From Massalongia carnosa (lineage: Eukaryota): DNA of 64,000 bases. The position numbers and the translations under genes are program-made. The stretch covers positions 186,001 through 250,000 of the forward strand of contig OZ287072.1 of NCBI GenBank assembly GCA_965645245.1, in the 5' to 3' direction. The notes below the pieces were generated by a model, which was not told where the DNA came from, ran no database searches, and was given only the letters and a program-made list of their open reading frames with translations. Positions 2,857-39,840 of this stretch are shown in pieces; position 1 is the first letter of the stretch, and every line of letters starts with the position of its first letter.

Positions 2857-4973
2857 ATGACAGCAGTTTTGCAAGATTAGCATATCCTTATCAATGTTTT
2901 ACTTTCGATTTGATTGGTTTGATATCTGCTTTTCCGCCGTATCTGCTGCCCGGATCCCTTTGGCCAGAAATTCCTCGTCGTATAACGTGTTGAATTGATC
3001 CCAGTCTATGTAATTGTTGACGTAAAACACGTCTGAGTTGATTCCCGATGGTATCAAATGTGCGCTACGCATTATCATAGATAGATCGTAGAATCGTCTA
3101 CCATTCAAATTTCGGGGGATTTTGCGTGTGTTCTGGGCCAAGTCTTCATTTCTATCATTCCATGTATTTCATTCGGTTGACCATTGTTCCGAGGCCGTAA
3201 AAGATCAAGAAGCACACCAGAATACATCGGGTGTTTGCCTCGAGAGTCTCTTCTGGCATGATCAACAATGGTAACAATCAATTGAACATGTCCTATCAAT
3301 CTTCCCTCTAGAGCTCTAGAATTGCCAGTTCCGTGGCACTCTCCTGCAGAATTTTCCTGAACCCATACGTAATCTCGTCTCCAGTTTCTACTCCTCATCC
3401 AGCTTGGTGCGCAACGTATGATTTCGGACTTGAGCGCCTCCAGGTCCGATGAATCCTTGCCATCCCGTATCCAGCATTTGATACCTTTATGTATCGAAAT
3501 CAAATGTGAGCCCGCCCAAGAAGAATCCGTCTCTCGTCGATATAAATTAGCATTGCTAGTTCGTACACCCTCCAACTTGTATCGGCCTTCTCTGATGAAT
3601 ACTGCCAAGGCGTCGAGGAAATCGTGAAGATGAAGCACGTCCGCAACACGAAAAGCTTCTCGCCATATTTTGTAACTTCGTCCGACCGCTTGCAGTTGAT
3701 CCATTTCTTCCTCATCCCACGACCAGTCTAGTGACGAAAGATCGAGGGCTCGAGTAAGCGAGGACACTTGCACTGTCATCTCTTTATCTACTTGATTTCC
3801 CTTTCTGCTCTGCCTGTAAAGCTCAATGTCTTTCATTGCCAGGGAGTTGAGACGTCGCGTGTTGTGTTGTGCTATTTGATCTAAATAACCGTCTTTCTTG
3901 TTGGTCCTATCGAAAAAAGCTTTAACTAGATATCGATGAGCAGCTTCGCTGTGAGAAGTATCCATCCCATCTGCGCTGCCGAATTGTTTGATATGCTCCA
4001 CATAATGTGTCATGACATGCCACTTAGGAAAATTAAAGGTGGGTTGACCGGTTTCGTTGTCTTTGGGTCGACTTTTTCCAAACACCCTTTTGAGCTTGTC
4101 GATACGATACAACGCATTGTGGCGAAATCACAGATGGCTCGAACGCAGAGCATAGCAGCAGGACATTTGCCAGTCAGAAATGGAGCCACAACAGGAACAA
4201 ATATTCTTAGTATATCCTTTTGTTCGTTCCCCGACCATTGTGTTATCTTACTGAACTTCGAGAAATGTTGAAGATCAGAAAACGAAGGCACAACGTCAAA
4301 TCGATGGTCGAGCTGTGCAGCAATGGGCGCTTCCTCAATCAAAGCCTCGTCAAATCTTCGTTTTCTTTTGATTGGCGTTATATCATCAATAAGGATCTGA
4401 GTCCATTCTATCATATTCATTATAATGCCCTTCAGCAGTTGATGAAGTATATCAACCATCATTACACCGTGTATGTTGACCAATTGATGTTTCCAAGCAA
4501 AATTGGTCACTGGATGTACCCAGGCTTCATTTGCCTTTGGAATTACTTGTCTAGTTCGGCTATGCTGAGAGCTAGTGCGTCGTTAATCGAGACAGCTCCC
4601 GCTTTGATTTCGGCACCGCATGGATCTCTCGGACGGCATAGATGTCTCAGCACCATAAGGATGTCTCAGCACGGCATAGAGATCTTAGCACCGCATCGAT
4701 CCTTCGGACGACAGTTAGGTTTCGGATTTGTGTATGCCTTGCTATGGGCCGCGTTGATGGGGCATACTGGGATGGTAGAGTAGGACAAGGAGAATAGGAA
4801 GAAGATATATAAAGAGGAGGTCCCAGACGGTATCCCTCATCATCTCACATCTCAAGACAATCAAAAGCATAGCATTTTGATAGCACTGTTTGCAACGTTT
4901 TCTTTTCACCCAATTCAAATTTATACAACCACTACACTTAAATTTACTCTATTCAAATCCCTCTCCTCCAAAA

Positions 4974-6128
4974 ATGGCCACCCGCATCTCCAACAGAATC
5001 ACCAAGCCTACCTCCCGCACACAAGGCAGCACTCTAGCCCGTACTAGAACTAGAGCTAGGGCAAATCTAGCCAACTCCAACCCAGACGTCGAAGTACCCG
5101 ACTCACAAGACAGCACGGCAACCCTTCAAAGCCATCCTCAACCTTCTCCTCTTCCATCTTCAGCGTTTAATTCCTCCTCACAAGGGCCTGTTATACCGGA
5201 AACCCGTTCTCGCACCCCTGATGACATTATTGAACTTAGAGCACAACGCGAAATGTCCCGCAGGGAAGCCGAGGAAAGAGAAAGAGTAAGTCTTAGGCGG
5301 GATATCGAAACCCAACAAGCACGTGCCCGAGACGTGGTCCCTGGGCCAGTAGCCTCAGCTCAACAGCCTTCCCTATTATTTCCGACATCATTTCCACCGC
5401 ATCGACCAAACTCATTGTATACAGAAGGTATGGATCCTCGTTTTGTTTCTCTTATGAACGAATATCCCACTATCAAGCCCATATGGATAAAGCAAATCTC
5501 CGAGAATACGTTTGACCCAATCAACATTACCAAGCTATGTACCGACATCGACGGAGTTCAAACCAACTCTAGATACGTCAAACTCGGAGAAGGTCTGGAA
5601 ATCGCCACGAGAGAAGAAGATGGCTCCTTAAAAGATATCAAAGGGATAGTTCATTTGATACGATGTCTCGGGGTATATTGGATGATACTACTACACTTTG
5701 CACACCCCGGTCTCCAGATAAACCTGATGAGAGCCTTCATGGCTTATCAGGACCATCTTCTATCATTATACGCCTTCTACACCTGGGACTCGGTTCGCAT
5801 CTTTCATTTGAATTTCCACAAATCTCGAGCCTTTCGCGGGATTGACAACCCGGATGGATGGAAAGAAATGGACCATTCCTTGGAAAGGCATCTTGTGCGG
5901 AAACCGTCCGCTTACTTTGCAAAACCGGACGATAATTCTACGGCTTTCAAAACCTCAGGCGAAAAGATTATCTGTAAGAAATACAACTATGGCAAAGACT
6001 GTCCCGTATATTGTAGATTCCAACATGTGTGTGAGAAATGTGGAAAGCAACATCGGGCGATGGACTGTACAAATGGAAAAAATCAACCCTCTAACCCAAA
6101 TTCGATGCCTCTCCCATCAAGGCAATGA
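4974..6128 (+). CDS. Ngaro A Gag-like protein with C-terminal Cys/His zinc fingers
   Basis: ATG at 4974 downstream of TATATAAA (~4805); C-terminus CKKYNYGKDCPVYCRFQHVCEKCGKQHRAMDC. Confidence 0.85.
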   Translation: MATRISNRITKPTSRTQGSTLARTRTRARANLANSNPDVEVPDSQDSTATLQSHPQPSPLPSSAFNSSSQGPVIPETRSRTPDDIIELRAQREMSRREAEERERVSLRRDIETQQARARDVVPGPVASAQQPSLLFPTSFPPHRPNSLYTEGMDPRFVSLMNEYPTIKPIWIKQISENTFDPINITKLCTDIDGVQTNSRYVKLGEGLEIATREEDGSLKDIKGIVHLIRCLGVYWMILLHFAHPGLQINLMRAFMAYQDHLLSLYAFYTWDSVRIFHLNFHKSRAFRGIDNPDGWKEMDHSLERHLVRKPSAYFAKPDDNSTAFKTSGEKIICKKYNYGKDCPVYCRFQHVCEKCGKQHRAMDCTNGKNQPSNPNSMPLPSRQ

Positions 6129-7745
6129 CTAACCGCCCCATTCTTATCCATCGCGGAGTCCTTTCCATACACCTTGACGGACAATCTAACAAAGATCCCA
6201 CCGGGCCCATTGAAGAAAGAAGGCTGGGAGAAACATTTGGCCAATCACCCGGATCGCACTTACACACAAACAATTATCGATATCATCACCTACGGTGCCA
6301 AAGTTGGTTATACAGGACCACATCAACTCATTATTAGCGATAATCTTGCCTCTGCAAATGAGGCACCGGAAGTTCTTACCAATGACCTCGAAGAACAAAT
6401 AGCTAGTAATCGGTTGGAGAAAGTCAACAACATTCCTTCTTGCTTTATATGTTCCCCATTAGGCCTTGTACCAAAGGCTAACGGTGGTTGGCGGCGAATC
6501 CATCATCTATCGTATCCGGAGAGTAGCTCAGTCAACGACCACATACCGGAAGACTGGGGCTCCCTGGAATATACCAGCTTCGACGAAGCCATTAGGTTGA
6601 TTGAGCAACGCGGGCCAGGGTGTATTCTTATTAAAAGAGACTTTGCGGACGCTTTTCGCCACATACCAGTAGCAAAAAGCGATTGGTGGTTACTAGGTTT
6701 CAAGTGGCAGGATTCCTTTTGGATGGATAAATACTTACCCTTTGGGCTGAGAACGTCGCCGTTCCTTTTTGATCTGTTCGCGAAGGGTATCAACTGGATA
6801 TTGTACAACTGTGGTTGGAAAGACGCTATTCATTACTTGGATGATTTTTTAATAATAGTCAGCACCGGACCAGATGCTGAAAAGTTTGATCAAGTTTTCC
6901 ACAACATTTGTAAAGATCTTGGCATGAAAATCAAGCTCGAAAAGAACAGAACTGGAACGACTTGCGATTTCCTCGGCATTGAAATCGATACCGCGCTCAT
7001 GGAAGCACGCTTGCCTTCCGAAAAGTTACTAAAAGCAAAGACCCTAGTATCGGCAGCTTTGAATAAAAAAGCCATACCCAGGAAGGAACTCGACTCTCTT
7101 CTAGGATTCTTATGCTTTGCAGCCAGAGTGGTAAAACCAGGAAGAGCCTTTCTACGCCGTCTTTTCAATGCTACGGCAAGCGTAACCTCTAAACTAATCC
7201 ATCTTAACAAGGACATGAGGGCTGATCTTCTATGGTGGCATCATTTCCTACCTAAATGGAATGGCATACATCTGCTCAACCGTACTAGACATACTATGAG
7301 AATATGGACAGATGCGTCCGGCTCATATGGTATGGGCGGCTTTATCCTCAGCGAGGATCAAAATTTGCATAATATACAAGCAGCCCGGCAGGCTTTTAGC
7401 ACACGCTTTACTACGCGCCTTAGGGCAAAGCATATCAACGTCAAAGAAATGACAGCAATTCTTCAAGCTATGAAAAAGTGGCTACCTATATGCAAGGGTA
7501 GTCATTTAATCCTCTATTGTGATAGCTACGCTGTCACGAAAGGAGTGAATAAAACCTCTATACGAGGCCAAGCAATGCATGCCCTGCGGGCAATTACAAT
7601 GCTAGCTGCATTACATGATATCCAGATAGAAGCGCGATGGATATCATCCAAAGAAAATTATATTGCTGATCTCTTGTCTAGAGGACTTTTGAAGAAACTG
7701 GCTGACAAAATCCCTCAGTTTCAGGCTCTACCCTCAGCAATATAG
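6129..7745 (+). CDS. Ngaro A reverse transcriptase/RNase H (in frame with gag, no early ATG)
   Basis: SPLGLVPK, WRRIHHLS, DFADAFR, LPFGLRTSP, HYLDDF, TDAS, INVKEM, ADLLSR. Confidence 0.92.
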   Translation, partial: LTAPFLSIAESFPYTLTDNLTKIPPGPLKKEGWEKHLANHPDRTYTQTIIDIITYGAKVGYTGPHQLIISDNLASANEAPEVLTNDLEEQIASNRLEKVNNIPSCFICSPLGLVPKANGGWRRIHHLSYPESSSVNDHIPEDWGSLEYTSFDEAIRLIEQRGPGCILIKRDFADAFRHIPVAKSDWWLLGFKWQDSFWMDKYLPFGLRTSPFLFDLFAKGINWILYNCGWKDAIHYLDDFLIIVSTGPDAEKFDQVFHNICKDLGMKIKLEKNRTGTTCDFLGIEIDTALMEARLPSEKLLKAKTLVSAALNKKAIPRKELDSLLGFLCFAARVVKPGRAFLRRLFNATASVTSKLIHLNKDMRADLLWWHHFLPKWNGIHLLNRTRHTMRIWTDASGSYGMGGFILSEDQNLHNIQAARQAFSTRFTTRLRAKHINVKEMTAILQAMKKWLPICKGSHLILYCDSYAVTKGVNKTSIRGQAMHALRAITMLAALHDIQIEARWISSKENYIADLLSRGLLKKLADKIPQFQALPSAI

Positions 7746-8761
7746 GACGCGATCCACCCCCATCTTGGTACAGTGAGGTACCTTTAGACGAAATCGCAGC
7801 ACGATACCTCTGGTGGGGCCTGGCCACTAAGACAAGATCTTTATACACAACGGCAAGAAAGGGATACGTTCTTTACTGTAGGGTAAACCTCAACGCGCCA
7901 CCATTTCCAGCCAACATCCGGACGCTGTCTTCGTGGATCGCAGCGTTGGGTGAACGACGCCTGCAACCAAAAACTATTAAGAGCTACTTGACGGGCATAA
8001 GATCATGCCAGATAGATATGGGCCTCGGTAATCTCGACGTATTTCATCACCCGGTGTTAGATCGCATCCTTACTGGCATAAAGCGAAAGAACGGTGAAGC
8101 CGAGAAACGTGAAAGGTTACCAATTACTAGAGAGATCTTAATCAAATTGCTAAGTCGTCTTGATCAAACGAAAGAGAAAGGCGCAAATTTACATGCGGCG
8201 TACTGCTTAGCGTTTGCAGGCTTCTTACGAGCCGGAGAATTTACTTACACAACGCAAGATGTACTAGACCCAAGCTTTGATCAATGGCACCTCACCAGAA
8301 AATCTATTAGGTTCGAAGCAGATCACCTACAGCTCTCTCTACCAGTCTCCAAAACCGATCCCTTTCGCCGAGGCATAACACTGACAATTGCGGCTACCAA
8401 CGATGTTGCTTGTGCACTAGCTTCTCTTACAAATTTATATAGGCGATTCCCAAGTTCTCCGGCCGCACCACTCTTTAAAAACGGTCAGTCCTTCACTCGA
8501 GACTACATTACAACAGCGATGAAATCCACCTTAAGGAACTTGGGCTATATAGGAAATTTCTCTGGCCACTCGTTCAGAAGAGGTGCGGCAACAACAGCGC
8601 GACGGGCAGGACTCACCGAAGACGAGATTCAGATGCTAGGAAGATGGAAGTCAGACGCATACAAGCTTTACATACAAACCCACCCCACTTACCTTCTTAA
8701 CGCCTCAAAACGCCTTCAAACATTACCCACGGAACCTCACAATCCAGTCACTAGGTCCTGA
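7706..8761 (+). CDS. Ngaro A tyrosine recombinase (open frame starts at 7706 without ATG)
   Basis: FLRAGE, SKTDP, GHSFRRGAA, GRWKSDAYKLY; frame open from 7706. Confidence 0.92.
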   Translation, partial: QNPSVSGSTLSNIGRDPPPSWYSEVPLDEIAARYLWWGLATKTRSLYTTARKGYVLYCRVNLNAPPFPANIRTLSSWIAALGERRLQPKTIKSYLTGIRSCQIDMGLGNLDVFHHPVLDRILTGIKRKNGEAEKRERLPITREILIKLLSRLDQTKEKGANLHAAYCLAFAGFLRAGEFTYTTQDVLDPSFDQWHLTRKSIRFEADHLQLSLPVSKTDPFRRGITLTIAATNDVACALASLTNLYRRFPSSPAAPLFKNGQSFTRDYITTAMKSTLRNLGYIGNFSGHSFRRGAATTARRAGLTEDEIQMLGRWKSDAYKLYIQTHPTYLLNASKRLQTLPTEPHNPVTRS

Positions 8762-10130
8762 ACAACACCGCAAGCGGGTCGTTCCATGTTGGGGATTGGG
8801 AGTCTGTTCACAGCCCAAGGCCTGCGAGAGGGTCTTACATTAGTAGACAGCAAGGCCCTTATCGAGTCCCCCTCTCGAGGCCGGGGGCTGTGAGCAATAG
8901 CCCAAACATACTTAGTAGCAATATAACGAGATTGACACGAACTAGCTAGTTCGGCTATGCTGAGAGCTAGTGCGTCGTTAATCGAGACAGCTCCCGCTTT
9001 GATTTCGGCACCGCATGGATCTCTCGGACGGCATAGATGTCTCAGCACCATAAGGATGTCTCAGCACGGCATAGAGATCTTAGCACCGCATCGATCCTTC
9101 GGACGACAGTTAGGTTTCGGATTTGTGTATGCCTTGCTATGGGCCGCGTTGATGGGGCATACTGGGATGGTAGAGTAGGACAAGGAGAATAGGAAGAAGA
9201 TATATAAAGAGGAGGTCCCAGACGGTATCCCTCATCATCTCACATCTCAAGACAATCAAAAGCATAGCATTTTGATAGCACTGTTTGCAACGTTTTCTTT
9301 CCCACCCACCCACTCCAGTTCTTCTGTCGCTTAGATAGAGGGAGTCTGTTCACAGCCCAAGGCCTGCGAGAGGGTCTTACATTAGTAGACAGCAAGGCCC
9401 TTATCGAGTCCCCCTCTCGAGGCCGGGGGCTGTGAGCAATAGCCCAAACATACTTAGTAGCAATATAACGAGATTGACACGAACTAGCTCTCTTGTTTGG
9501 CGATTTGAGATCGAGTTGTTTCATGTGTGCGTGGATCCCATTTTCCTAGTAAATTTTCTCTTTCGTTTGAGGGAACCTGGCAAATGCTACAATGACGCTG
9601 ATATTTTATCCCCGTAATCAAAACCTGCTCTTCGTAGTCCACAGTGAAGCCGGCGATAATAGGATAACATCGTCGCACATGTCCATCGGCACAAGTCAAA
9701 AGGATACCATTTTTGAATGTTGTTTGATAGCTAGCACGGCATTCAAGTCATGGTTAGTTATCGTTATAATAAGGAGGGAGTGAAACTCACGTCTGAGCAT
9801 CATTTTCATTGCAAGATGATAGACCTGAGCTTTCAGTTCGTCTCCCTTCTCCTTCTCCTTGACAATAGGGATAAAACCTAACAAAACGATACCCGGTCTA
9901 TTGGGCTGGCGTCGAGTCTTTCGATCCAAGTTTCCAATCGTAAGATAAACAGGCCACGCCGACTGATCTCCATGATGCTGGGTGAGTCTTGTTTTGTCTG
10001 TAGCTAAGAGAAGTGGCACAACTGTTGCATTTTCAGGAAGCTGTTCTTGAATTGACCACCACCAGTCACCTGTTGCCATTTCACTGAACATACGTAGATC
10101 TGCGCTATTATACTGACGGATGGGTGCGTA

Positions 10131-11467
10131 CAGTACTAGGCCAAAAGTCTGCGGCCCCGCACCCCACCAACATTTCAATCATTCTATTCAATCAACAATC
10201 AACCACGTCACGATTGCTGAAATGTCTTGAAACTTTACATAATGATTACATACATACTAAACAAGAATTCCCCCAAAAATTGTTTTTTAATATTTAGTAT
10301 ACCATCCTTCCGACGCTATACACGCTTTTATCCTCCTATTCATGCTCTCTATTAACCTCCTCATCATTTTCACATCTATCAACGTCCAGGCTTCTTCTAA
10401 CGCTTTCCAAAGAACCTCACGAACAGTTTCATCACTGCCGATCACCAAATCTATGTTCGGGTTGACTTGATAGACGAGCTTTTTGAGCACATACCAAACG
10501 TGCTCGATGGGATTTAAATCAGGTGAATAGGGGGGCCAATCGATGACCTCTATGCCGTTCTCATTGAACCATTCCATCACCTTTTTAGCCTTATGTATAG
10601 TTGCGTTATCCTGCATGAAAATGAGGCCCGGTTGCCAAATTCCAAGCAGATTATCGTTCAATAATTCCATATATGAGTTCGCCGAGTACCCCATCTTCTT
10701 CGCAGCAAAATCACGAGCCAATTTGTAAAGATCTGACCTGTCATCTCCCCAAAAAGCTGCCCAGACCATGACACTGACTCCTTTGCCTTTGGGGACAGGT
10801 TGTATCATCTCTTTATTCCATTTTTCTTTCGGCAATCTGAACACCCACTGACGCTGTTTTCCTGACCCCTTTTCCACCGAGCACTCATCTGACCATATAA
10901 CTCTTGACTACTGCTCAAAAGTCCACTCACGCCGCAGCAAGCACCAATCCAATCGTTTCTTGGCCACCTCAGGCGTCAATAAAGGTCGTTTTTTAGCCAC
11001 CCAGTTGGTTAAACCATACAGTTTGATTGCCCGATAAATAGTCGTACGACTGCAGCCGAGCCCCACTTCTAGTTGGATTTGTGCATAAGTGATTCGTGGA
11101 TTGATTTGTGCATGCTTGATGATATAACGTCGATCGCGTTCTGACAGCACTTCAGGCCGTCCAGAACGTGATTTAGACACGCCGTCGTTGCGAATTGAGT
11201 GCTTCTGAATGGTGCTCTGCACGGTCGATTTAGTGAAATTAAGAGTCTTCCCAATCTCGGTCGGTGTGTGCCCCAACGCCTGGGCCCCAAAATCATACCA
11301 CGTTGATATGGCGTCAATTCAGTGTTACGAGGCCGATTACCACTTATGGGGGTCAAAGAAGCACGAAGCATGGTGAAATGATGGGGTGGAAGATGGGGGG
11401 TTGATGAGTTGAAAACGCGAAATCACGAAAATTATGGGTTGGGCCGCAGACTTTTGGCACGGGACTG
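10131..11467 (-). mobile_element. Tc1/mariner (DD34E) transposon with defective transposase (10287-11371)
   Basis: TA TSD (10129-10130, 11468-11469); ~27-bp imperfect TIRs sharing CAGT and GCCAAAAGTCTGCGGCCC; WSDEC, FMQDNA-34 aa-PDLNPIE; frameshift near 11285 and TAG at 10908. Confidence 0.93.
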
Positions 11468-16639: not shown

Positions 16640-17803
16640 CTAGATGGAGGTGCCCGGCGGCGCTCCGGATCGATGCCCTGGTTGACCTGTACGCCCAATG
16701 GAATGCCCAATTGAGTAGGGGTAGGAGTTTGTAGGATTCGTCTCGGCGACGACAGCACGTGGGACTGCTAGAGGGATGCCTTTTTGAAAACTGAGGTTCA
16801 AATTGAATAGTGAGGCCTGGGACGTCTGAAAGTATAGCTGAAACGCGTTTGATGACCATCTTCCGAGTCTCTGAATACTCTCATCCAGCATCCCGTGGTC
16901 GGCGGCGTGTTGTGCTGCTCCTTTTCTGAAGCTGTGTCCCGAGTATGCCGAGTCGTTGATGCCGACGGCTATCAGTCTCTTTTTCAGGGATGCTATGACG
17001 GAGGCTCTGGTGAATGCGGTGCCGAGACGAAAAAGCGGGGATGTAGATGGCTGAGGATCATTTCTGAAAAGACGCCGTAGTGCTGTCACGGGGCAAGTGC
17101 TCTCATTGGTCGCTGCCAGCACTATCTGAACTCCTGAGTGATTTGTGTCTGTTTTGCTTCTTTTGAGACGTAATGTCGCGTATTGATCGTTCTCGGCGAA
17201 TGAGATGTCACCTCGTGTAGGTTTCAATCTCTGAAAAGATGTCTTCTTACGATCAGCGACAGTGTAGGTGATTTCCCCGAGTCTGAGGAACCCTGCCCAT
17301 GCAACTTTGAATGTCGCGTCGATGTTGAGGTCTTCGGCCGAATGAGCGGGAATACTGGTGATTTTTGTCAGTAATTCTTTTGAAATGGGTAGGCGTCTTC
17401 TTTTTGTCTGAGAAAAGATCCTTTTTCCCCCTTTCAGCATCAATTGAAGTCTCGGCCCCTCGAATGGGGTGAGGCCGTATCCTCGGTCTACATGGTATGA
17501 TCTGAGGCCGGCGAGGTAGCTCGCTGCCGTCTCTGGTTTTATCTTTCCCTGCTTGGGTGTGCCGCCCCCGTATAGTCGACCGGCTAGCCATTCCTCGAGG
17601 GACTCGGTTGTTGCAGGCCACGACGTGCGTCCCGTCGTCGCGCAGAATGCCTCGTATGAGTCGATCGCCGTCCCGTACCCTTTTCTCGTGTCCGCCGAGT
17701 GTCCGTGCCAGACGAGACGTTTTACCAGGGCTGACCCTGGTGTGGAGGATAGGTAGGTGGAGGGAGGTTCATCGAATTGTATGGGTTCTGCCAATGAGGG
17801 CAA
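16640..17803 (-). CDS. Ngaro B tyrosine recombinase
   Basis: FLRLGE, KRSKTD, GHSFRKGAA, GRWSSNAFQLY. Confidence 0.92.
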   Translation of the reverse strand: MPSLAEPIQFDEPPSTYLSSTPGSALVKRLVWHGHSADTRKGYGTAIDSYEAFCATTGRTSWPATTESLEEWLAGRLYGGGTPKQGKIKPETAASYLAGLRSYHVDRGYGLTPFEGPRLQLMLKGGKRIFSQTKRRRLPISKELLTKITSIPAHSAEDLNIDATFKVAWAGFLRLGEITYTVADRKKTSFQRLKPTRGDISFAENDQYATLRLKRSKTDTNHSGVQIVLAATNESTCPVTALRRLFRNDPQPSTSPLFRLGTAFTRASVIASLKKRLIAVGINDSAYSGHSFRKGAAQHAADHGMLDESIQRLGRWSSNAFQLYFQTSQASLFNLNLSFQKGIPLAVPRAVVAETNPTNSYPYSIGHSIGRTGQPGHRSGAPPGTSI

Positions 17804-19425
17804 AAGTTAGCCAATCTTTCATCATCAAAACGTGACAGGGCATCTGCTAGTCCATTGGAAGTGCCACTGATCCATTGACAACGTAGTACGATGTCCCACT
17901 TTGCAGCTATGGACAGTATTTCTCGTAGAGGCGCGTTGGCCGGTCCCTTGAGGGTTAGATTCGTGAATCCTGTGTATGCTGTGTTGCTGTCGGTAAAGAC
18001 AAGGATCTGTCGATGTCGCCATGTCGGCGCCCATTTCTGAAGGATTAGAAGGATAGCTTCGACTTCTCGGACGTTTATGCTCGGTGATCCTTCCTGATTG
18101 AGGACTAGGACTCGGGCCCTACATGCGTTTTTTTGATTCACGAGCTCGTTGTCTTGTTGAAAATAGCCTCCGAGACCCGTGAGGCATGCATCCGTATGCA
18201 CCTTGATCGTGTCTCGTGTTGACGTCTCGAAGAAGACAATACCGTTGAAGTCCACTAGAAGTTTGTTCCACCAGATGAGATCCTGTCTGACCCATGTGGG
18301 AATTCTTCTTTTGACCCGACGATGACTGCCCGAGGGAAATGAGGCTATAAAATTCCAGAATAATCGTAAGAAGACTCGGCCCAATTTGACTGCCTGTGCG
18401 CAGAAGCTTAGGAAGCCCGCTATTGACTGCATGTCGCCGAGGCTGATTGTCGTCTCGTTTAGTGCCTTTGTAGTGATGATTCTCGCTTTTTCCAGCTTGT
18501 CCGCTGGCAGACGAATAAGACTGTTGATGGTGTCGACCTCGAGTCCGAAGACTGTCGCTGTCGTTCCCTCGGCGTCTTTTGAGTCGTTTCTCGGGATGCC
18601 GAGAATGTCGGTGAGAATGTTGTAGGCTTTTGTTTCTTGGTGCAATCGTTCTGACGATGTCTCGGATGGGAAAATTGCAACGAAGTCGTCTAGATAGTGA
18701 TGTAATCTCCATTGTAGAAAGGATTCCAAAATCCAATGAAAGCCTTCCGCAAAAAGATTGAAGATGAACGGGGCCGTCGACAGTCCGAACGAAAGGCATG
18801 TCTCGGTGTAGAATTCGTCATTCCATCCGAAACCCAGAAGCCATTGATGATGAGGTGCGACGGGAACGTTTCGAAAGGCGTCTTTGACGTCTCTTTTCAC
18901 TATGACAGCACCTTTGCCCGCTGACAGAATCAATTGAATAATGTCGTCGAGTCTGGCGTATTGTAATTTGGATGCCTCTTCTGGAATGTTGTCGTTGACT
19001 GATGTTTGATTGGGATGAGACAGATGATGAATGCGTCGCCATCCTCCGTCATGTTTCGGGACCAAGCCGAGGGGGGAGGCCACAAATGGCTGACTCGGGG
19101 CGGCTATTCGTCTGACTCGGCCCTTCCTGAGGTCCTCTTGGAGCTTATTCTCGATCGTTTCCGGGTCCTCATTCGCTGATGTCAGATTTTTTTCGATCCG
19201 AAGGATGTCTGTGGGGCCTTCGTATCCGATTTGTACTCCGAAACGAAGGATCATGGGCAGATGGACTCGGAGGGGGCCCGGATACTCTTGAAGTAGAGTT
19301 GCCCATGCGGACGGTACGAGGGGAGATGGGCTGTCTTTCAAACGCTGACGAGATGCGTCTACGAGTTGAAACGAAGGGATTGTATTTGGTCTGATTGGTG
19401 CAGGTAAGCAGGGATGGGACGTCAT
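17722..19425 (-). CDS. Ngaro B reverse transcriptase/RNase H
   Basis: SPLGLVPK, DVKDAFR, LSFGLSTAP, HYLDDF, HTDAC, INVRE, TDS, ADALSR. Confidence 0.93.
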   Translation of the reverse strand: MTSHPCLPAPIRPNTIPSFQLVDASRQRLKDSPSPLVPSAWATLLQEYPGPLRVHLPMILRFGVQIGYEGPTDILRIEKNLTSANEDPETIENKLQEDLRKGRVRRIAAPSQPFVASPLGLVPKHDGGWRRIHHLSHPNQTSVNDNIPEEASKLQYARLDDIIQLILSAGKGAVIVKRDVKDAFRNVPVAPHHQWLLGFGWNDEFYTETCLSFGLSTAPFIFNLFAEGFHWILESFLQWRLHHYLDDFVAIFPSETSSERLHQETKAYNILTDILGIPRNDSKDAEGTTATVFGLEVDTINSLIRLPADKLEKARIITTKALNETTISLGDMQSIAGFLSFCAQAVKLGRVFLRLFWNFIASFPSGSHRRVKRRIPTWVRQDLIWWNKLLVDFNGIVFFETSTRDTIKVHTDACLTGLGGYFQQDNELVNQKNACRARVLVLNQEGSPSINVREVEAILLILQKWAPTWRHRQILVFTDSNTAYTGFTNLTLKGPANAPLREILSIAAKWDIVLRCQWISGTSNGLADALSRFDDERLANFCPHWQNPYNSMNLPPPTYPPHQGQPW

Positions 19426-19470
19426 GAATTCAGCTATTGAAGCTATTCTACTGCCTCCTGCACCAACCCC

Positions 19471-20484
19471 CTATTTCTTCGTTGGGCATGTCTTCTGGCC
19501 ATGCCCAGCCGCGCCGCACGATTTACATTTGTGCTGTCGGTAGCACGACGGCCAGGTGCAGGTGCCGCTGTTGTACTTGTCGCAGATTTCCCCCGCTGCC
19601 TTCTCGGCCCTATCGGCCCTGTCTCCTCTCGGGGTCGGTCGCCGGGACGGCGGGGATCGTGAGCGGCGACGGCGTAGGACTGTGAGGGGGGTGCAGAATC
19701 GAGCTTGGAATTCGTCGGGCATTTTCCATTGGGATGCGTCGGATGGCTGAGACGCGATGATGTGAGTGTGGGTTTCGATGGCGAGGGGGAGGACTGCTTC
19801 CTGCCACTCGTACACCTTGGCCAGCGTGAGGATTTTTCCGTGGAATGCCGACATGGTGGCGTGAAGCTGTTGACTCGATTTCCCGAAAAGACTGACCATG
19901 ATCGAGGTGTAGTTGATGAAGCTCTCGGTCCAGACGTCATGAACTGTCTTTCCGAAATCTTTGTAGGTCCCGGATGCCTTTCTCAACCTCAAGGCGCCGT
20001 CTTCGATGCCGATGCGGTCCTGATCCTTGTAGGACTCGTATTGCATGCCGTGCATGTGTCGGAGGCGGGAGAGGTTGATGGCTTTGAATTTATTTGAAAA
20101 GATCTTGATGATCTCGTCCTGTGGTAGGCCCGCGAAACGGGGTGCTATACTTCTTACTTCGAGAGGGATCTCACCTAGGTCCTCGTCGTCATCGCCGACG
20201 ACACGACTCGGCTTGCCAGCAGGAATGACGGCCGCTATTCGGGCGTCAGATTCTCGGCGCATGCAGTCGATTTCTAGCTGCATTTTTTCCACCTCCTTCT
20301 CGGCGACCAATGCCTTGGACTCGGCAATTCTGGCCTCAGCCTCGGCCGCCTTCGCTTCTGCCTCGGCTTTCTTCTTTTGTAGGGCGAAGATTTGATTGGA
20401 CTGGGCCTGCGTCAATCCGACAATCTCCTGGGAGTCGGGGACTATGTCGTCCATCGGGGTGCTTTGGGAACGGGTGTTCGTCAT
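19471..20484 (-). CDS. Ngaro B Gag-like protein
   Basis: ATG at 20484; coiled-coil-like N-terminus; C-terminal CDKYNSGTCTWPSCYRQHKCKSCGAAGHGQKTC. Confidence 0.85.
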   Translation of the reverse strand: MTNTRSQSTPMDDIVPDSQEIVGLTQAQSNQIFALQKKKAEAEAKAAEAEARIAESKALVAEKEVEKMQLEIDCMRRESDARIAAVIPAGKPSRVVGDDDEDLGEIPLEVRSIAPRFAGLPQDEIIKIFSNKFKAINLSRLRHMHGMQYESYKDQDRIGIEDGALRLRKASGTYKDFGKTVHDVWTESFINYTSIMVSLFGKSSQQLHATMSAFHGKILTLAKVYEWQEAVLPLAIETHTHIIASQPSDASQWKMPDEFQARFCTPLTVLRRRRSRSPPSRRPTPRGDRADRAEKAAGEICDKYNSGTCTWPSCYRQHKCKSCGAAGHGQKTCPTKK

Positions 20485-21270
20485 TGGGAAAAAGCACCGA
20501 CAGCGAGGTAGGGGCACCGAGGACAACGTGAGGTCGACGACGAGTCAGTGAGATGGGAAAAGCAGCAAGCACTGACAGCGAGGTAGGGGCACCGAGACAA
20601 CGTGGGGTCGACGACGAGTCAGTGAGATGGATGAGGCCGAGTGAGAAGAAGTGGATGAGGAAAGAATTTTCAGAGGGTGATTCTTAATTTACTTTGACTC
20701 AGGGGCCTCACGTGACATAGAACCATCTCATTTCTTGACGGCGTACAAGTTACGAGTCGCCACGACCTTTTCATTCTTGGCCAAGCTGTACAAGAATTAC
20801 AATTCTAAACCTATCGAAATAACAAAAAAAGAGTGACATATCAAGCCAGATCCAGAGTTTAATCCATATGTGCAGCATCTTGGGGAGACCATAGAATCGA
20901 GCTTTGACTAGAATGAGCTGATGTATTCGTTAGGTCAGGAGCATAACGACACGAGAAAATCTATTGACTATGTTATCTTCCCTAGCCGGATGTCATGTTG
21001 CATTTGTGGTGCGTCACATCCTATACTACTCTCATTATCGATTCAATGAAATAATTTAACCTACTGCATAGAACAGATACTAAAACATAGAATGAATACC
21101 GACGTTCAAAATAACAGTCGCAGCGCTCACGATACTGGAGGACTACGAACTATCTACATATGACTCGGGATCACGGGCATTGGAGACTTTATCGTTTGAG
21201 ACTTTTGAGGTTTGACATACTGAACCTTTTACAGAGATGATCTACGGTAAGCTAACACTAACTAATCCTA

Positions 21271-29601: not shown

Positions 29602-32600
29602 ATGAGATGGTTCTATGTCACGTGAGGCCCCTGAGTCAAAGTAAATTAAGAATCACCCTCTGAAAATTCTTTCCTCATTCACTTCTTCTCACTCGGCCTC
29701 ATCCATCTCACTGACTCGTCGTCGACCCCACGTTGTCTCGGTGCCCCTACCTCGCTGTCAGTGCTTGCTGCTTTTCCAATCTCACTGACTCGTCGTCGAC
29801 CTCACGTTGTCTCGGTGCCCCTACCTCCCAATGACGAACACCCGTTCCCAAAGCACCTTGATGGACGACATAGTCCCCGACCCCCAGGAGATTGTCGGAT
29901 TGACGCAGGCCCAATCCAATCAAATCTTCGCCCTACAAAAGAAGAAAGCCGAGGCGGAAGCGAAGGCGGCCGAGGCTGAGGCTAGAATTGCCGAGTCCAA
30001 GGCATTGGTCGCCGAGAAGGAGGTGGAAAAATGCAGCTAGAAATCGACTGCATGCGCCGAGAATCTGACGCCCGAATAGCGGCCGTCATTCCTGCTGGCA
30101 AGCCGAGTCGTGTCGTCGGCGATGACGACGAGGACCTAGGTGAGATCCCTCTCGAAGTAAGAAGCATAGCACTCCGTTTCGCGGGCCTACCACAGGACGA
30201 GATCATCAAGATCTTTTCAAATAAATTCAAAGCCATCAACCTCTCCCGCCTCCGACACATGCACGGCATGCAATACGAGTCATACAAGGATCAAGACCGC
30301 ATCGGCATCGAAGACGGCGCCTTGAGGTTGAGAAAGGCATCCGGGACCTACAAAGATTTCGGAAAGACAGTTCATGACGTCTGGACCGAGAGCTTCATCA
30401 ACTACACCTCGATCATGGTCAGTCTTTTCGGGAAATCGAGTCAACAGCTTCACGCCACCATGTCGGCATTCCACGGAAAAATCCTCACGCTGGCCAAGGT
30501 GTACGAGTGGCAGGAAGCAGTCCTCCCCCTCGCCATCGAAACCCACACCCACATCATCGCGTCTCAGCCATCCGACGCATCCCAATGGAAAATGCCCGAC
30601 GAATTCCAAGCTCGATTCTGCACCCCCCTCACAGTCCTACGCCGTCGCCGCTCACGATCCCCGCCGTCCCGACGACCGACCCCGAGAGGAGACAGGGCCG
30701 AGAGGGCCGAGAAGGCAGCGGGGGAAATCTGCGACAAGTACAACAGCGGCACCTGCCTGGCCGTCGTGCTACCGACAGCACAAATGCAAATCGTGCGGCG
30801 CGGCTGGGCATGGCCAGAAGACATGCCCAACGAAGAAATAGGGGGTTGGTGCAGGAGGCAGTAAAATAGCTTCAATAGCTGAATTCATGACGTCCCATCC
30901 CTGCTTACCTGCACCAATCAGACCAAATACAATCCCTTCGTTTCAACTCGTAGACGCATCTCGTCAGCGTTTGAAAGACAGCCCATCTCCCCGTACCGTC
31001 CGCATGGGCAACCCTACTTCAAGAGTATCCGGGCCCCCTCCGAGTCCATCTGCCCATGATCCTTCGTTTCGGAGTACAAATCGGATACGAAGGCCCCACA
31101 GACATCCTTCGGATCGAAAAAAATCTGACATCAGCGAATGAGGACCCGGAAACGATCGAGAATAAGCTTCAAGAGGACCTCAGGAAGGGCCGAGTCAGAC
31201 GAATAGCCGCCCCGAGTCAGCCATTTGTGGCCTCCCCCCTCGGCTTGGTCCCGAAACATGACGGAGGATGGCGACGCATTCATCATCTGTCTCATCCCAA
31301 TCAAACATCAGTCAACGACAACATTCCAGAAGAGGCATCCAAATTACAATACGCCAGACTCGACGACATTATTCAATTGATTCTGTCAGAGGGCAAAGGT
31401 GCTGTCATAGTGAAAAGAGACGTCAAAGACGCCTTTCGAAACGTTCCCGTCGCACCTCATCATCAATGGCTTCTGGGTTTCGGATGGAATGACGAATTCT
31501 ACACCGAGACATGCCTTTCGTTCGGACTGTCGACGGCCCCGTTCATCTTCAATCTTTTTGCGGAAGGCTTTCATTGGATTTTGGAATCCTTTCTACAATG
31601 GAGATTACATCACTATCTAGACGACTTCGTTGCAATTTTCCCATCCGAGACATCGTCAGAACGATTGCACCAAGAAACAAAAGCCTACAACATTCTCACC
31701 GACATTCTCGGCATCCCGAGAAACGACTCAAAAGACGCCGAGGGAACGACAGCGACAGTCTTCGGACTCGAGGTCGACACCATCAACAGTCTTATTCGTC
31801 TGCCAGCGGACAAGCTGGAAAAAGCGAGAATCATCACTACAAAGGCACTAAACGAGACGACAATCAGCCTCGGCGACATGCAGTCAATAGCGGGCTTCCT
31901 AAGCTTCTGCGCACAGGCAGTCAAATTGGGCCGAGTCTTCTTACGATTATTCTGGAATTTTATAGCCTCATTTCCCTCGGGCAGTCATCGTCGGGTCAAA
32001 AGAAGAATTCCCACATGGGTCAGACAGGATCTCATCTGGTGGAACAAACTTTTAGTGGACTTCAACGGTATTGTCTTCTTCGAGACGTCAACACGAGACA
32101 CGATCAAGGTGCATACGGATGCATGCCTCACGGGTCTCGGAGGCTATTTTCAACAAGACAACGAGCTCGTGAATCAAAAAAACGCATGTAGGGCCCGAGT
32201 CCTAGTCCTCAATCAGGAAGAATCACCGAGCATAAACGTCCGAGAAGTCGAGGCTATCCTTCTAATCCTTCAGAAATGGGCGCCGACATGGCGACATCGA
32301 CAGATCCTTGTCTTTACCGACAGCAACACAGCATACACAGGATTCACGAATCTAACCCTCAAGGGACCGGCCAACGCGCCTCTACGAGAAATACTGTCCA
32401 TAGCTGCAAAGTGGGACATCGTACTACGTTGTCAATGGATCAGTGGCACTTCCAATGGACTAGCAGATGCCCTGTCACGTTTTGATGATGAAAGATTGGC
32501 TAACTTTTGCCCTCATTGGCAGAACCCATACAATTCGATGAACCTCCCTCCACCTACCTATCCTCCACACCAGGGTCAGCCCTGGTAAAACGCCTCGTCT

Positions 32601-33912
32601 GGCACGGACACTCGGCGGACACGAGAAAAGGGTACGGGACGGCGATCGACTCATACGAGGTATTCTGTGCGACGACGGGACGCACGTCGTGACCTGCAAC
32701 AACCGAGTCCCTCGAGGAATGGCTAGCCGGTCGACTATACGGGGGCAGCACACCCAAGCAGGGAAAGATAAAACCAGAGACGGCAGCGAGCTACCTCGCC
32801 GGCCTCAGATCATACCATGTAGACCGAGGATACGGCCTCACCCCATTCGAGGGGCCGAGACTTCAATTGATGCTGAAAGGGGGAAAAAGGATCTTTTCTC
32901 AGACAAAAAGAAGACGCCTACCCATTTCAAAAGAATTACTGACAAAAATCACCAGTATTCCCGCTCATTCGGCCGAAGACCTCAACATCGACGCGACATT
33001 CAAAGTTGCATGGGCAGGGTTCCTCAGACTCGAGGAAATCACCTACACTGTCGCCGATCGTAAGAAGACATCTTTTCAGAGATTGAAACCTACACGAAGT
33101 GACATCTCATTCGCCGAGAACGATCAATACGCGACATTACGTCTCAAAAGAAGCAAAACAGACACAAATCACTCAGGAGTTCAGATAGTGCTGGCAGCGA
33201 CCAATGAGAGCACTTGCCCCGTGACAGCACTACGGCGTCTTTTCAGAAATGATCCTCAGCCATCTACATCCCCGCTTTTTCGTCTCGGCACCGCATTCAC
33301 CAGAGCCTCCGTCATAGCATCCCTGAAAAAGAGACTGATAGCCGCCGGCATCAACGACTCGGCATACTCGGGACACAGCTTCAGAAAAGGAGCAGCACAA
33401 CACGCCGCCGACCACGGGATGCTGGATGAGAGTATTCAGAGACTCGGAAGATGGTCATCAAACGCGTTTCAGCTATACTTTCAGACGTCCCAGGCCTCAT
33501 TATTCAATTTGAACCTCAGTTTTCAAAAAGGCATCCCTCTGGCAGTCCCACGTGCTGTCGTCGCCGAGACGAATCCTACAAACTCCTACCCCTACTCAAT
33601 TGGGCATTCCATTGGGCGTACAGGTCAACCAGGGCATCGATCCGGAGCGCCGCCGGGCACCTCCATCTAGATCATCGCCGTCGGGCACTGCCGTCGGGCA
33701 TCATCTATCGGATCGTTGAGCGGCAGCAGACGCCTCGGGCCTAGAAGATGAGGTTCCCACCTCAGCACCGACCCCGAGTCACGTGCCTAGGCCTGCCCGG
33801 GCTGACCTGTGTCGTTCCCATGCCCAATCAAATTCAAGCATTCAAATCAATTCATCCAATTAAAAGCCCCCCCCAGCGCAAGCGAAGGTAACGGCACCGA
33901 TAAGGGTCATAG
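29602..33912 (+). mobile_element. Ngaro family B, copy 2; lacks A2-B2, ORFs disrupted
   Basis: Near-identical to 15869-20731; AA flanks; frameshifts near 30030, 30757 and 30993; TGG>TGA at 32690 in YR; single A and single B repeat. Confidence 0.93.
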
Positions 33913-35401: not shown

Positions 35402-38400
35402 CTAAATTTCTTGGCAACGACAGCGGGGAGTTGTACATGGGGTGATGTGTGGTCCGGCGGCGGCAGGGTAAGCGGAATGAAAGTCGTCTAAGGCTTGCTG
35501 ACAATTAGTTAGGAAGTTGAATGGTTCCCAAGTAGGGGTATGTCCTTCCCAATTGACGAAATACTGCAACAGAGGCGGCTGATAACGGCGATCGTATTTT
35601 GAGTTCAGAATACTGTTTACATACCATTCCCGTTGCCCGTCTTCTGCGATAACAGGATCACGCGGTGCTGGGTGTTGACCGGGCAAAGGGTCGGCAGGGT
35701 CGTGTTGCAAGAGATTGACATGGAAAACAGGATGAATCTTGACAGTCTCTGGGAGTTCCAACTGTACGATTAAAGGATTGTTCGGGAAGACACGATTCAC
35801 CCGATATGGTCCTATATTTCTGTCGTCCAATTTCACCGTAGGTCTGGCAGTCTGGATATTCTTTGTGTTTAACCAGACCATATCTCCGACAGAATAACGA
35901 GGGCAGGGACGACGATTTGCGTTAGCGTTGGATTCATATATGGCTTGGGCAATTAGCATTTCGTCACGCAGGTGAGAATCTAATTTCTGCATCCTGTCAG
36001 CGAATTTATTAGCAGCAATCAGATTTGCCCGGGCCTGGGTCGATATATTTTCCGGTAGAGGTTCTGCAGGTTCAAAGCCCATGCGGGGGTGTTGCCCTGA
36101 ATTCGCTAAAAATGGCGATGCCAGAGTGCTAGATGAATCAGTGTTATTGGCAGCGAATTCAGCGCCAGGAAGAAACTCGACCCAATCATCCTGCATATAA
36201 TTCACATAAGCCCTAAGGTAATGCTCCATTGACGCATTTGCTCTTTCCGTTTGACCATCTGTTTCAGGATGATAACTGGTTGATAAACGAGCATCAATCT
36301 TTAGTCGTTTGCACAATGTTTGCCAGAAGTCCGATACGAATTGGGATCCACGATCAGAAACTAGAACATCTGGCAGGCCATGGTGTTTCCATACATACCA
36401 ATAAAAAGCTGTTGCGGCTTCTTCGACTTCCATCGTTACGGTAGGTGCGTAATGCTTTTGTTTGGATAATCGATCAACGAATACAAGAATGTAGCGATAG
36501 GTGACTCCCATAAAGGTACTTACGGGGAGAGGACCGACATAATCCATGGATACGTCGCGCCAGCGGCGTTCTGGCGGAGGCAACGGTCGCAACCATCCTT
36601 GATATCTTTCCCGCGATGGTTTAGACCGTTTGCACACATGGCAGTTTCGCACGAATTGCTGAATGGTCTTATGCATACTGGGCCACTAATAGGAGCGGCC
36701 GATAATCTCGAAGCATTTCGCACGTCCTGGATGGCCACCTACCACACTATCGTGGGCTAATTGCAGAATCCTGAGTCTCAATCTGTCTGATTTTGGTACA
36801 TATCGTCGATTTCGGAAGTAAAGAACACCATCCCTGTCTTCGCATTCAGCCAACTGAATTCCGCTGTGATATCTGGTTCCGTTTTGCAGCATTACTAGAA
36901 TTTTCGGGGCAAAGCGATCTCTTTGAATGGCTTGATTCCAAAGCTCGTCGGTAGGGATATCCATCGGGTCATTGTCAGAGGCGATCTGATCTGAATCTGG
37001 ATCGAGTTGAGGTTCGTCGTTATGATTATCATCTTCGTTGCCTAGATTTTCGGATTCATCGAGTTCGTGTTCCTGTTCTAAAAACGCAGGTGCTAGCCTT
37101 ATGACTTCTTGTTCTAGGAAAGCGGGTGCTAATCTTATAGCAGGGCATAAATTCAGGTCTCGGGCAACTTCTTCATCTATATTATGCGATTTGATGACAG
37201 TTTGATGTTGAAATTGTCGGCGTTCGTCTGTTTCATCCCCTTCTTTAGGGAGATCTCCTGATCTCCTTGTTAGGGCGTCTGGTTTCCCACCTGCTTTTCC
37301 AGGGCGATAGATTATTTTATAATCAAATCGGGATAAGAACTCGCTCCAGCGGGCTTGACGGCGGCTCAATTGCTTGGAAGACGTGAAATATTCTAGATTT
37401 TTGTGATCCGTGATTACATTGATTGGGTGAGCGGAACCCTCCAATTCGGGTCTCCATTCTTCGAAAGCCCGAACGATTGCCATTAACTCCTTATCATAGA
37501 TTTCATAATTACATTCCGCCGGATTGTGTTTCTTGGAAAAGTAAGCAATAGGTCTTAGAACACTGTTCTTGTCATATTGCGAAAGAATTCCTGCGGATAT
37601 ATAATCAGAGGCGTCTGTCTCCACGATAATTGGCTTGTCTGGATCGAAGTGCAATAAGACTACGTCTGAGGTGAAGGTTCTCTTCATAGTGTCGAAAGCT
37701 TGCTGACATTTATCAGTCCATAAAAATTTCACGTCTTTTCGTGTGAGGTTGGTTAATGGGCCAGCAATCATGCTAAACCTCAGAATGAATCGTCTGTAAA
37801 AGTTCGCAAACCCTAAGAAGCTCTGTACGTCTTTCACGTTTTGGGGAGTGGGCCAATTAATAACAGTTTCGACTTTGGCAGGATCCATTTTTATCCCCTC
37901 TGTGGTCACGATTAGACCTAGATATGAAACTTCTTTCACATGAAATGCGCATTTAGTGATGTCTGCTTGAAGGCCTGCCTCACGCAGTTTGATCAGAATT
38001 CTTTTAACGTGAACTCGTGCTCTGATTCAACGTCACTGTATATCAGAATGTCATCCAAATATGCGGTGCAAAAGTCGTCCAGATACTCTCGCAGAGTATC
38101 GTTGATAAAGTGCTGAAAAGAGGCGGGTCCATTACACAACCCGAAAGGCATTACCAGGTACTCAAATAGACCAAATCTTGTGCGGAATGCGGTGAGTTCT
38201 TCGTCGCCTTCCTTTATGCGTAGGCGATTAAAGGCTGCTATTATATCTAATTTAGTAAATATTTTAGCTCTGGACAAGCGATTCAAGGTCTCGGCTATCA
38301 ATGGCAACGGATATCTATTCTTGATAGTGACGGCATTCAGGCCTCTGTAATCAACACAGAAGCGAAGGCCCCCTCCGGGCTTTTTCACGAACATGACAGG

Positions 38401-39840
38401 AGACGCCGCATGCGAACGGCTGGCACGAATGAACCCCTTGGCCAAATTATCGTCTAAATACCGACGGAGTTCTTCTATTTCGTCGCGGCTCATGCCGTAT
38501 AACGCTTGATTTGGAGGTTGGAAGCCATCTTTCAAATTGATGGCATGGTCGTAGGGCCGGCGCTCTGGAAGCACTTCAGATTCTTTTCTAGAAAAAACGT
38601 CTAGGAATTCGTGATATTGTTTCGGTAAGATGGTGCTCGGGTCAACGTTCTTTCGTTCCCGAATGGCTTCAAGCTCTTCTTGAGTTACGGATGTTTCTAA
38701 GGTTAGCTCCTTATTCATTTTGCAGATGGTCATATGCATATCCTTATCGCTAGGGCAGGCCTTCGGATTCAATGGTGGAAAGGCCTGCATCGCTATTAGG
38801 CTAATGGATGAGCTAGGGTCGGAATGACTGGGACTGGGACTGGGAGGTGCTTTTATTCCTAAAAAGCGATCGATTTCATGAAGTGAGATACTAAATATCT
38901 CGTGATTTTTCTTTCTAGCAAGGCGATCGAAAGTTACTGCGCTGACTTCGCAAATTTGTGACGAATTGCTGCAGGATGTTTGAGTTGAGTTGATTGTCTG
39001 AACTGAGCTGGATATCTGAGTCTGATTGGGTTTCTGGATTGGACTGAGTGTCCGAACTGATTGGGGTCTGACACGTACATAGCTTTGTGATCGTGGTCTG
39101 ATTTTCGGAGTTGTGCCTCTCTGAATGGCGGTGAGTATTCGGCTTGGGCCATCTTCTTTTTGATATTCAAAGATGGAGAGCTCGGGTTGACTGGTCTGCA
39201 GAGCTGTTTCTTCTGCTTGCCATACCTTCTGACTTTCGGCAGGCATAAGGAATTCTTCTTCTTTCGTGGTGGCTGATTGCACCATTACAGGTGAAGGACA
39301 GCAGTGTGCAAGGCAAAAGGGGGACGATAGGGACAAGGTGTTGTTGGAAAAGTTTGTAATGACTCCGTGTCTGCGAAGCCATGGGTGGCCCAAAACAATG
39401 GGGTAATGTCTTAATCCTGTTACATAAAGAAAGAGCTTTTCTACATGCCCATTTAGGTCCATGGTAACTTCGGCGATGTGAGTTATGTTGCCAGTCAATG
39501 CTGGCTGGCCATCGAAGCCGGAAAGTCGTCTAGGATATTTCAATTGGTGTAAGGGGAAGTTATGAAAACGCGCGAAATCTTGATCAATAAAGGAATATCC
39601 AGATGCACCACTGTCCACAAGAATCAAAGCTTTTATTCTGGTTTGAAAACGACGTAATATACAAGAGATAACCATATGACTATCTCTAAATGTCTCATCA
39701 GTTTCAAAAAGAGTAAGAGCAGACGCCGCCGAAAAACGATTGCTAGACATGAGCGGCGGTGTAAACGATGTGGACAGCAGGCAAGAAGAAATCAAGAAAT
39801 CTGGTTGTCTCTGCGCGCGACTATGCGCAGAGACTAAGCT
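35402..39840 (-). pseudogene. pol: Gypsy pol (PR-RT-RH-IN-chromodomain) with a frameshift near 38010 and TAG at 36686
   Basis: [48 protein letters not shown], chromodomain YFVNWEG..PTWEP. Confidence 0.92.

Follow-up and report, generated by a model that had tools for sequence, protein, structure and literature searches.

Predicted splice signals that would fuse the Gag N-terminus to the tyrosine recombinase in Ngaro-type retrotransposons

A stretch of 64,000 nucleotides (nt) of Massalongia carnosa contig OZ287072.1, called the window below, carries Ngaro-type retrotransposons of two families, which we name element A and family B. Their tyrosine recombinase (YR), the integrating enzyme, is probably expressed by way of a conserved, very long spliceosomal intron, whose removal would fuse the N-terminal part of Gag (Gag') to the recombinase. 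As a reading of sequence, this is strongly supported because the donor, the branch site, the acceptor and the phase are conserved in 22-30 diverged clusters of related elements. It gains further support because the signals required by the alternatives are not conserved and because a public protein has the predicted architecture.

We propose the following mechanism. Transcription from the A1 repeat would produce a full-length RNA. When unspliced, this RNA would encode Gag and also, where ribosomes read through the in-frame stop of gag, a fusion of Gag with reverse transcriptase (RT) and RNase H (RH), and it would double as the template for reverse transcription. In a fraction of the transcripts, the spliceosome would connect the gag donor (after position 5427) with an acceptor where the YR frame opens. 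The best candidate for this acceptor is the CAG ending at 7718; the one ending at 7724 is an in-phase alternative. About 2.3 kb would thus be removed, comprising the gag core and nearly all of RT/RH, and the resulting mRNA of about 2.2 kb, translated from the gag AUG, would give a Gag'-YR fusion of 498 (or 496) amino acids (aa). We infer both the use of these signals and their pairing as described, and likewise that only some transcripts are spliced. We can only speculate that the N-terminal region common to both proteins directs the recombinase to Gag or to the nucleus.

Structure of element A and its predicted intron

Element A is an intact Ngaro-type YR retrotransposon (Table 1). Self-BLAST reveals split direct repeats in the arrangement A1 ... 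B1-A2-B2, with A1 (4551-4912) matching A2 (8946-9308) at 99.4% and B1 (8798-8947) matching B2 (9340-9489) at 100%, and gag, RT/RH and YR lie between them in this order on a single strand. In the open reading frames (ORFs), Pfam recognizes RVT_1, RT_RNaseH and, weakly, Phage_integrase (E 4.6e-4, under the curated cut-off). The recombinase has the catalytic R, K, HxxR, H/W and Y: in the YR alignment R175, K216, H288, W314 and Y322 are invariant and R291 and Y319 nearly so, and element A has all of them. No methyltransferase, protease or DDE integrase is found by Pfam in the three ORFs at E <= 0.01, which fits Ngaro; DIRS1/PAT elements, unlike Ngaro, carry a methyltransferase domain. A database protein, P0144, is 99% identical to the gag product.

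The gag stop is followed directly by the RT/RH ORF in the same frame, a read-through geometry seen at 6126-6131 in element A (TGA then CTA), at 19473-19468 on the minus strand in family B, and likewise in the relatives L001, L003, L005, L030, L043, L071, L076 and L078. In L009 and L023, the RT/RH ORF lies in a different frame and overlaps gag. Ngaro families thus seem to differ in their route to pol.

The YR frame of element A starts without a usable initiation codon. Its first Met is codon 105, which lies within the conserved N-terminal domain of the YR alignment, and the frame is shut upstream by a TGA (7703-7705) inside the predicted branch site GCTGAC. The original prediction, that this frame has no ATG for about 100 codons and opens at GCTGAC, is therefore borne out, as is its phase-1 donor at 5428, since gag codon 152 begins at 5427. 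The gag ORF contains 16 phase-1 GTs, among which G5428 is the sole one with a donor score >=4. The Gag' segment that would be donated is basic and rich in Ser, Thr and Pro, and a run of charged residues follows.

Two CAG triplets follow the branch site in the same phase. The original prediction had taken the one ending at 7724 as the acceptor; a CAG does stand there in phase, but the acceptor at the conserved position is the one ending at 7718. We consider 7718 the more likely acceptor because it is the first AG after the branch A and because its 13-nt spacing is that of most relatives. Joining 5427 to 7719 leaves an open frame of 498 aa. The join first proposed, of 4974-5427 to 7725-8761, is also uninterrupted, with 1491 nt, a lone stop at the end and 496 aa. 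Element A therefore has what a subgenomic mRNA of this kind calls for, namely a donor inside gag, an acceptor at the distal ORF and an in-frame join, and the predicted borders are of the GT..AG type with a fungal-type donor (GTATGG in element A and GTGAGA in family B). A donor/acceptor pair in a single element is not compelling against chance.

Family B, which is about 36-40% identical to element A in RT and YR, shows the same geometry, as had been claimed for it. Its good copy has the donor TAG/GTGAGA (G20174, phase 1), GGCTAAC at 17812-17806 and a CAG ending at 17788, and the join is open over 485 aa.

Table 1. Positions in the window of the elements, their predicted splice signals and neighbouring features
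Feature	Positions	Strand	Remarks
Ngaro-type element A, whole	4551..9489	+	A1 - gag - RT/RH - YR - B1 - A2 - B2; from self-BLAST, ORFs and Pfam
gag ORF	4974..6128	+	384 aa; ATG 4974, TGA 6126-6128
Predicted exon 1 (Gag')	4974..5427	+	gag ATG to first base of codon 152; 151 codons + 1 nt
Predicted 5' splice site	5425..5433	+	AAG/GTATGG (G5428), phase 1
Stretch missing in one X4 contig	5428..5534	+	107 nt, GT..AG, from the predicted donor; TTGAC, 19 nt, AAG
RT/RNase H ORF	6129..7745	+	frame of gag, directly 3' of gag stop; nearly all inside the predicted intron
Predicted branch site	7701..7706	+	GCTGAC, branch A 7705; CTRAY at this place in 30/30 clusters
Tyrosine recombinase ORF	7706..8761	+	351 codons; frame -1 relative to RT/RH
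Predicted main 3' splice site	7716..7718	+	CAG, 13 nt past branch A; exon 2 from 7719, phase 1
Second CAG, same phase	7722..7724	+	acceptor of the original prediction; exon 2 from 7725
Family B copy 1, good	16640..20544	-	gag ATG 20484 to stop 19471; RT/RH 19470-17722; YR 17806-16640
Family B copy 2, degraded	29986..33670	+	frameshifts and stops; donor G30140, CTAAC 32500-32504 and CAG 32520-32522 kept
DDE_3 (Tc1/mariner-like) transposase fragment	10287-10907	-
Ty3/gypsy-type element	35402-41078	-	RVT_1, RNase H, rve
MULE transposase	45575-47713	-
NACHT/WD40-repeat gene	55095-58883	+

Conservation of the signals in diverged relatives

At E <= 1e-10, the YR of element A finds 1474 homologues. 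When metagenome contigs were scanned with a YR alignment, 79 loci emerged, many with full elements, and the survey set of 84 elements takes in these loci and three window copies. It comprises 30 clusters at <=70% YR identity, each represented by one member, and 15 at <=60%. At this degree of divergence among the 30 clusters, synonymous sites should be saturated between clusters. The donor side was compared in the 37 elements with gag, which form 22 clusters. The survey asked for in the original prediction, of Ngaro relatives for donor, CTRAC and CAG, gives conservation in all 22 clusters on the donor side and in all 30 on the acceptor side.

An ATG ahead of the conserved N-terminal domain of YR is present in only 6 of the 30 representatives, where its codon varies, and a Met is entirely lacking in two full-length YR ORFs (L003:5926-7017, 364 codons; L078:3505-4581, 359 codons). 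Considering that an early ATG is so rare and that these two ORFs are Met-less, the recombinases need an AUG from upstream.

On the acceptor side, CTRAY followed by a first AG 8-40 nt later stands at the opening of the YR frame in 73 of the 84 elements, in phase 1 in all but one of these (72/73), so that the first base of exon 2 would occupy the second codon position of the YR frame; in the 11 misses, the YR match used began inside the ORF or in a shifted frame. Counted by cluster, the motif is present in 30/30, with phase 1 in 29 (the exception is L044) and a spacing of 13, 16, 17 or 19 nt from the branch A to the first AG. Since CT[GA]AC includes the stop at which the YR frame opens, that stop is either TGA or TAA. 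The RT/RH frame reads the branch motif as xCT|RAC, that is, an Ala or Thr codon and then Asp or Asn, which allows comparison with codon usage: the third position of the Ala/Thr codon is T in 30/30, against a background of 19.7% in these RT ORFs, and that of the Asp/Asn codon is C in about 28/30, against 58%. Likewise, the acceptor triplet is CAG in 29/30, compared with 44.6% of Gln codons in the background; for L037 the site listed is GAG, and a CAG stands 13 nt past its CTAAC. L040 and L043 have their CTAAC shifted to another codon register, in which it is read as Leu-Thr with a 17-nt spacing, and the AG is still in phase 1; this points to a constraint on the RNA and not on the protein. As a control, the gag/RT junction of 15 representatives has any CTRAY-AG in only 4/15, including the CTAAC at the gag stop of element A, and shows no positional conservation. 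The acceptor signals are conserved beyond coding constraint in diverged relatives.

On the donor side, a phase-1 GT sits where the variable N-terminal region of gag gives way to the conserved core in 37/37 elements and 22/22 clusters. The hexamers are GTATGT (14 elements), GTACGT (9), GTACTA (3), GTAATG (3) and GTATGA (2), with GTATGG (element A), GTGAGA (family B), GTAATA, GTACCT, GTAACT and GTATCC once each; GTATGT or GTACGT is thus present in 23/37. By cluster (n = 22), G occupies -1 in 20 and +5 in 15, A occupies +3 in 21, and T occupies +6 in 13. The codon split by the donor is nearly always Gly GGT (background 20%), and the Thr that follows GGT is ACG in all nine GTACGT elements, against a background of 13.8%; the other Thr-bearing donor hexamers have ACT, ACC or AAC. 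In L005, the split codon is Arg CGT, thus the nucleotides are kept and not the residue. In the very divergent families, the donor lies 29-32 nt before the core motif in 4 of 5, and 98 nt before it in the fifth. An alignment anchored on the FPG motif downstream, which does not presuppose the donor, shows GGTAYGT in a shared column, or no more than 6 nt from it, for about 9 of the 11 main-cluster representatives. When each gag ATG is joined to the YR stop in this way, the frame is open, with an exon 2 of >=300 aa or reaching the contig end, in 26/37 elements, and the rest are visibly decayed.

Many main-cluster elements have a second phase-1 G/GTGAGA 39 nt downstream of the donor. This appears to be the site that family B would use.

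Public proteins, contig joints and competing explanations

A protein with the architecture of the predicted product exists in public data. P0018 (513 aa; NCBI, Logan) has an N-terminus homologous to that of the Gag of element A and continues directly into YR. Its residues 32-110 align to Gag residues 78-150 (E 6e-7), its N-terminal tblastn match in the window ends at 5423, four bases before the donor, and its YR is 51% identical to that of element A. P0121 (Logan, ENA; on a 28-kb contig) is a one-residue variant of it. Both differ from element A in that the His of HxxR is Tyr and in an insert with a run of Gly. A phmmer search with P0018 among 1.84 billion representatives returned no second protein with its N-terminus among the best 150, and a search for long YR proteins gave 102 matches, mostly ab initio RT-YR or RH-YR gene models. 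Two proteins from Collybiopsis that looked by eye like Gag'-YR candidates, P0157 and P0158, have no significant N-terminal BLAST match to the Gag-bearing models of the clade and were not counted; P0345, P0359, P0247 and P0311 proved uninformative.

Six public runs contain element A, none of them on record as RNA, and the contigs of X1, X4, X5 and X6 were examined; X5 and X6 reach a depth of 2 and span no more than 6047-8778 and 6456-8800, respectively. The loose ends of contigs in X1 and X4 lie at GATC sites, and we infer that both are Hi-C-type DNA libraries. One X4 contig lacks a stretch that begins exactly at the predicted donor (Table 1). The joint runs from 5424 to 5532 with the cut at +3 (3-nt ambiguity), in a single contig with a depth of 1023.8 and a shorter side of 26 nt, and the AAG used as acceptor lies within the gag protein motif FD....KL. 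If X4 is indeed such a DNA library, the joint would be a DNA copy of an aberrantly spliced RNA. We read the skip of 107 nt as a cryptic event, which nonetheless weakly suggests that the donor is recognized.

Several observations weigh against the long intron and need to be set beside its support. The sole joint seen comes from one contig and links the donor to 5534, an acceptor that breaks the frame, and a joint of 5427 with 7719 or 7725 is absent from the contigs of the four runs, which include no RNA runs. The claim that a spliced subgenomic mRNA makes the integrase has the conserved signals in its favor, while the only contig joint uses another acceptor, 107 nt downstream of the donor. A search with Gag' of element A (residues 1-151) finds only Gag itself (P0144) and no product of 496 or 498 aa, and P0018 may represent a gene model with splicing, a transcript or a DNA copy that lacks the intron. 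The donors of element A and its nearest relatives are weak (GTATGG, GTAATG, GTACTA, GTAATA), whereas a perfect consensus donor, AGA/GTAAGT (5283-5291, G5286), lies in gag in phase 0, incompatible with the YR acceptor, so that its use would give an out-of-frame product. The homologous donors were chosen by eye among phase-1 GTs, so their phase is no independent test, and no family has a compensating phase change. Finally, the predicted introns are 2255-2889 nt long, while typical fungal introns measure tens to low hundreds of nt.

Two further points of this kind also speak for a rival, a -1 ribosomal frameshift or other recoding at the end of RT/RH. This would yield a Gag-RT/RH-YR polyprotein and make the splice-like motifs coincidental or give them another role; we regard it as unlikely. 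Nearly all loci (about 66 of 75 rows) have YR in the -1 frame with respect to RT/RH, as a frameshift would likewise need, with ORF overlaps of 22-1039 nt, and fungal Ngaro elements are given in PMC3783388, in the portion available, with a YR ORF in the same frame or frameshifted. Moreover, in P0145 (890 aa), which is related to the L054/L072 family, one frame runs from RT/RH through the place of CTGAC..CAG into YR, thus a polyprotein route exists in some families. However, the overlap of element A or family B contains no X_XXY_YYZ heptamer, and such a heptamer occurs in only 6 of 29 representatives with no common position. The overlap is only 40 nt in element A and 22 nt in L030, and frameshifting leaves the fixed synonymous positions in CTRAC..CAG and in GGTAYGT of gag unexplained. 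Separately, the RT/RH frame remains open for 350-1000 nt into the YR ORF in divergent families, namely L040, L043, L054, L072, L069, L075, L076 and L078.

The splice sites might also be genuine and paired otherwise, the YR acceptor with a donor in RT/RH to give Gag-RT-YR, or the gag donor with nearby acceptors, which we find slightly less probable again. The only joint seen links the donor to 5534, and a phase-compatible ATG/GTATGG lies 389 nt before the acceptor in element A and CAT/GTAGGG 335 nt before it in family B. Yet a phase-compatible donor (score >=4) is present in the last 400 nt of RT/RH in only 4/29, at no conserved position, a strict CTRAY-AG lies <=260 nt past the gag donor in only 4/22, none of them conserved, and the TTGAY..AAG of four elements coincides with the gag protein motif, where skipping breaks the frame. 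More doubtful still is that YR is translated alone, from Met105, a non-AUG codon or a transcript of an internal promoter, with the motifs reflecting protein-coding or other cis constraints. Public ORF calls do begin at Met105 (P0001, 247 aa) and an early ATG exists in the 6/30 representatives mentioned above, but Met105 falls within the conserved N-terminal domain, the first ATG shows no conservation, and Met-less full-length ORFs occur; the third codon positions are fixed against their background and the motif persists in another codon register. That the signals are functionless chance resemblances is very improbable: in a single element an in-frame donor/acceptor pair is not rare, given the 16 phase-1 GTs of gag, but chance would not keep the signals in 22-30 clusters at <=70% protein identity, and the gag/RT control region has no positionally conserved motif. 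A spliced pol mRNA, from GTAAGT at 5286 to the CTAAC at the gag stop of element A, was considered and rejected, as the CTRAY-AG of the gag/RT junction is unconserved in the 14 other representatives.

Setting of the element, related strategies and meaning

The window is rich in transposable elements (Table 1). Element A is inserted in a Plavaka-type transposase gene on the minus strand (3105-4582 and 9484-10178), pieces of whose ORF resume beyond the other side of the element, with a PF18759 match at 9699-10178 (E 9e-36). At 4916, just inside the A1 end (4912), contigs of X1 and X4 show a different upstream sequence; therefore, other copies or arrangements of element A have another 5' neighbor there. 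Position 7784 is T in the window and C in all four runs, which is a synonymous difference in a Leu codon of YR.

The proposed strategy resembles the partial splicing of retroviruses, some long terminal repeat (LTR) elements and pararetroviruses. In avian leukosis/Rous sarcoma virus, the donor of the env mRNA lies inside gag, so that env starts at the gag AUG with about six Gag codons, and the unspliced RNA serves as genome and gag-pol mRNA. Similarly, the donor here would lie in gag and the downstream protein would carry the first residues of Gag; in contrast, 100-300 codons would be donated to the integrating enzyme, and LTRs, protease and env are absent here. For foamy-virus pol, copia and BARE, partial splicing of the genomic RNA, rather than frameshifting, sets the protein ratio. 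Foamy Pol is not fused to Gag, and the copia/BARE splice removes pol to give Gag, whereas the predicted Ngaro splice would remove the gag core and RT/RH to give the recombinase. ORF IV of rice tungro bacilliform virus, a plant pararetrovirus, is expressed through a very long intron, with a short 5' ORF giving an in-frame AUG to a startless distal ORF; its 5' ORF is a short leader ORF, whereas that of Ngaro would be gag.

In agreement with the original prediction, which knew of no such report, no description of natural splicing in Ngaro/DIRS elements was found in full-text literature searches, a scope that excludes the founding Ngaro paper and the main review (Goodwin & Poulter 2004; Poulter & Butler 2015). 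In the accessible portions of Muszewska et al. 2013 (PMC3783388), fungal Ngaro elements have their YR ORF in the RT frame or frameshifted, and neither "intron" nor "splic" occurs. The excerpts of PMC7192593 mention splicing only of an engineered marker intron, and those of PMC6681497 and PMC8547959 do not describe natural Ngaro/DIRS splicing. As far as these portions of PMC3783388 go, its elements are like element A in the A1-B1A2B2 repeats, in the order gag - RT/RH - YR with YR frameshifted relative to RT/RH, and in having no methyltransferase, protease or DDE integrase; the conserved set of donor, branch site and acceptor proposed here for YR expression is what sets our description apart.

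If true, the long intron would explain how an out-of-frame and startless YR ORF is expressed in fungal Ngaro elements. Tyrosine-recombinase (DIRS-order) retrotransposons would gain their first natural example of expression through splicing, the partial-splicing strategy of retroviruses would extend to a third retrotransposon class, and annotators would have a rule for YR gene models. The proposal predicts reads split at one definite junction, as well as genomic Gag'-YR copies that lack the intron. For fungal Ngaro elements as a group, we lean, with only a little more confidence than doubt, toward a picture in which the host spliceosome makes the integrating enzyme through a conserved intron of 2.3-2.9 kb; the spliced RNA, which would keep both element ends and be reverse-transcribable, may then give rise to Gag'-YR copies without the intron or to domesticated genes, of which P0018 would be an example.

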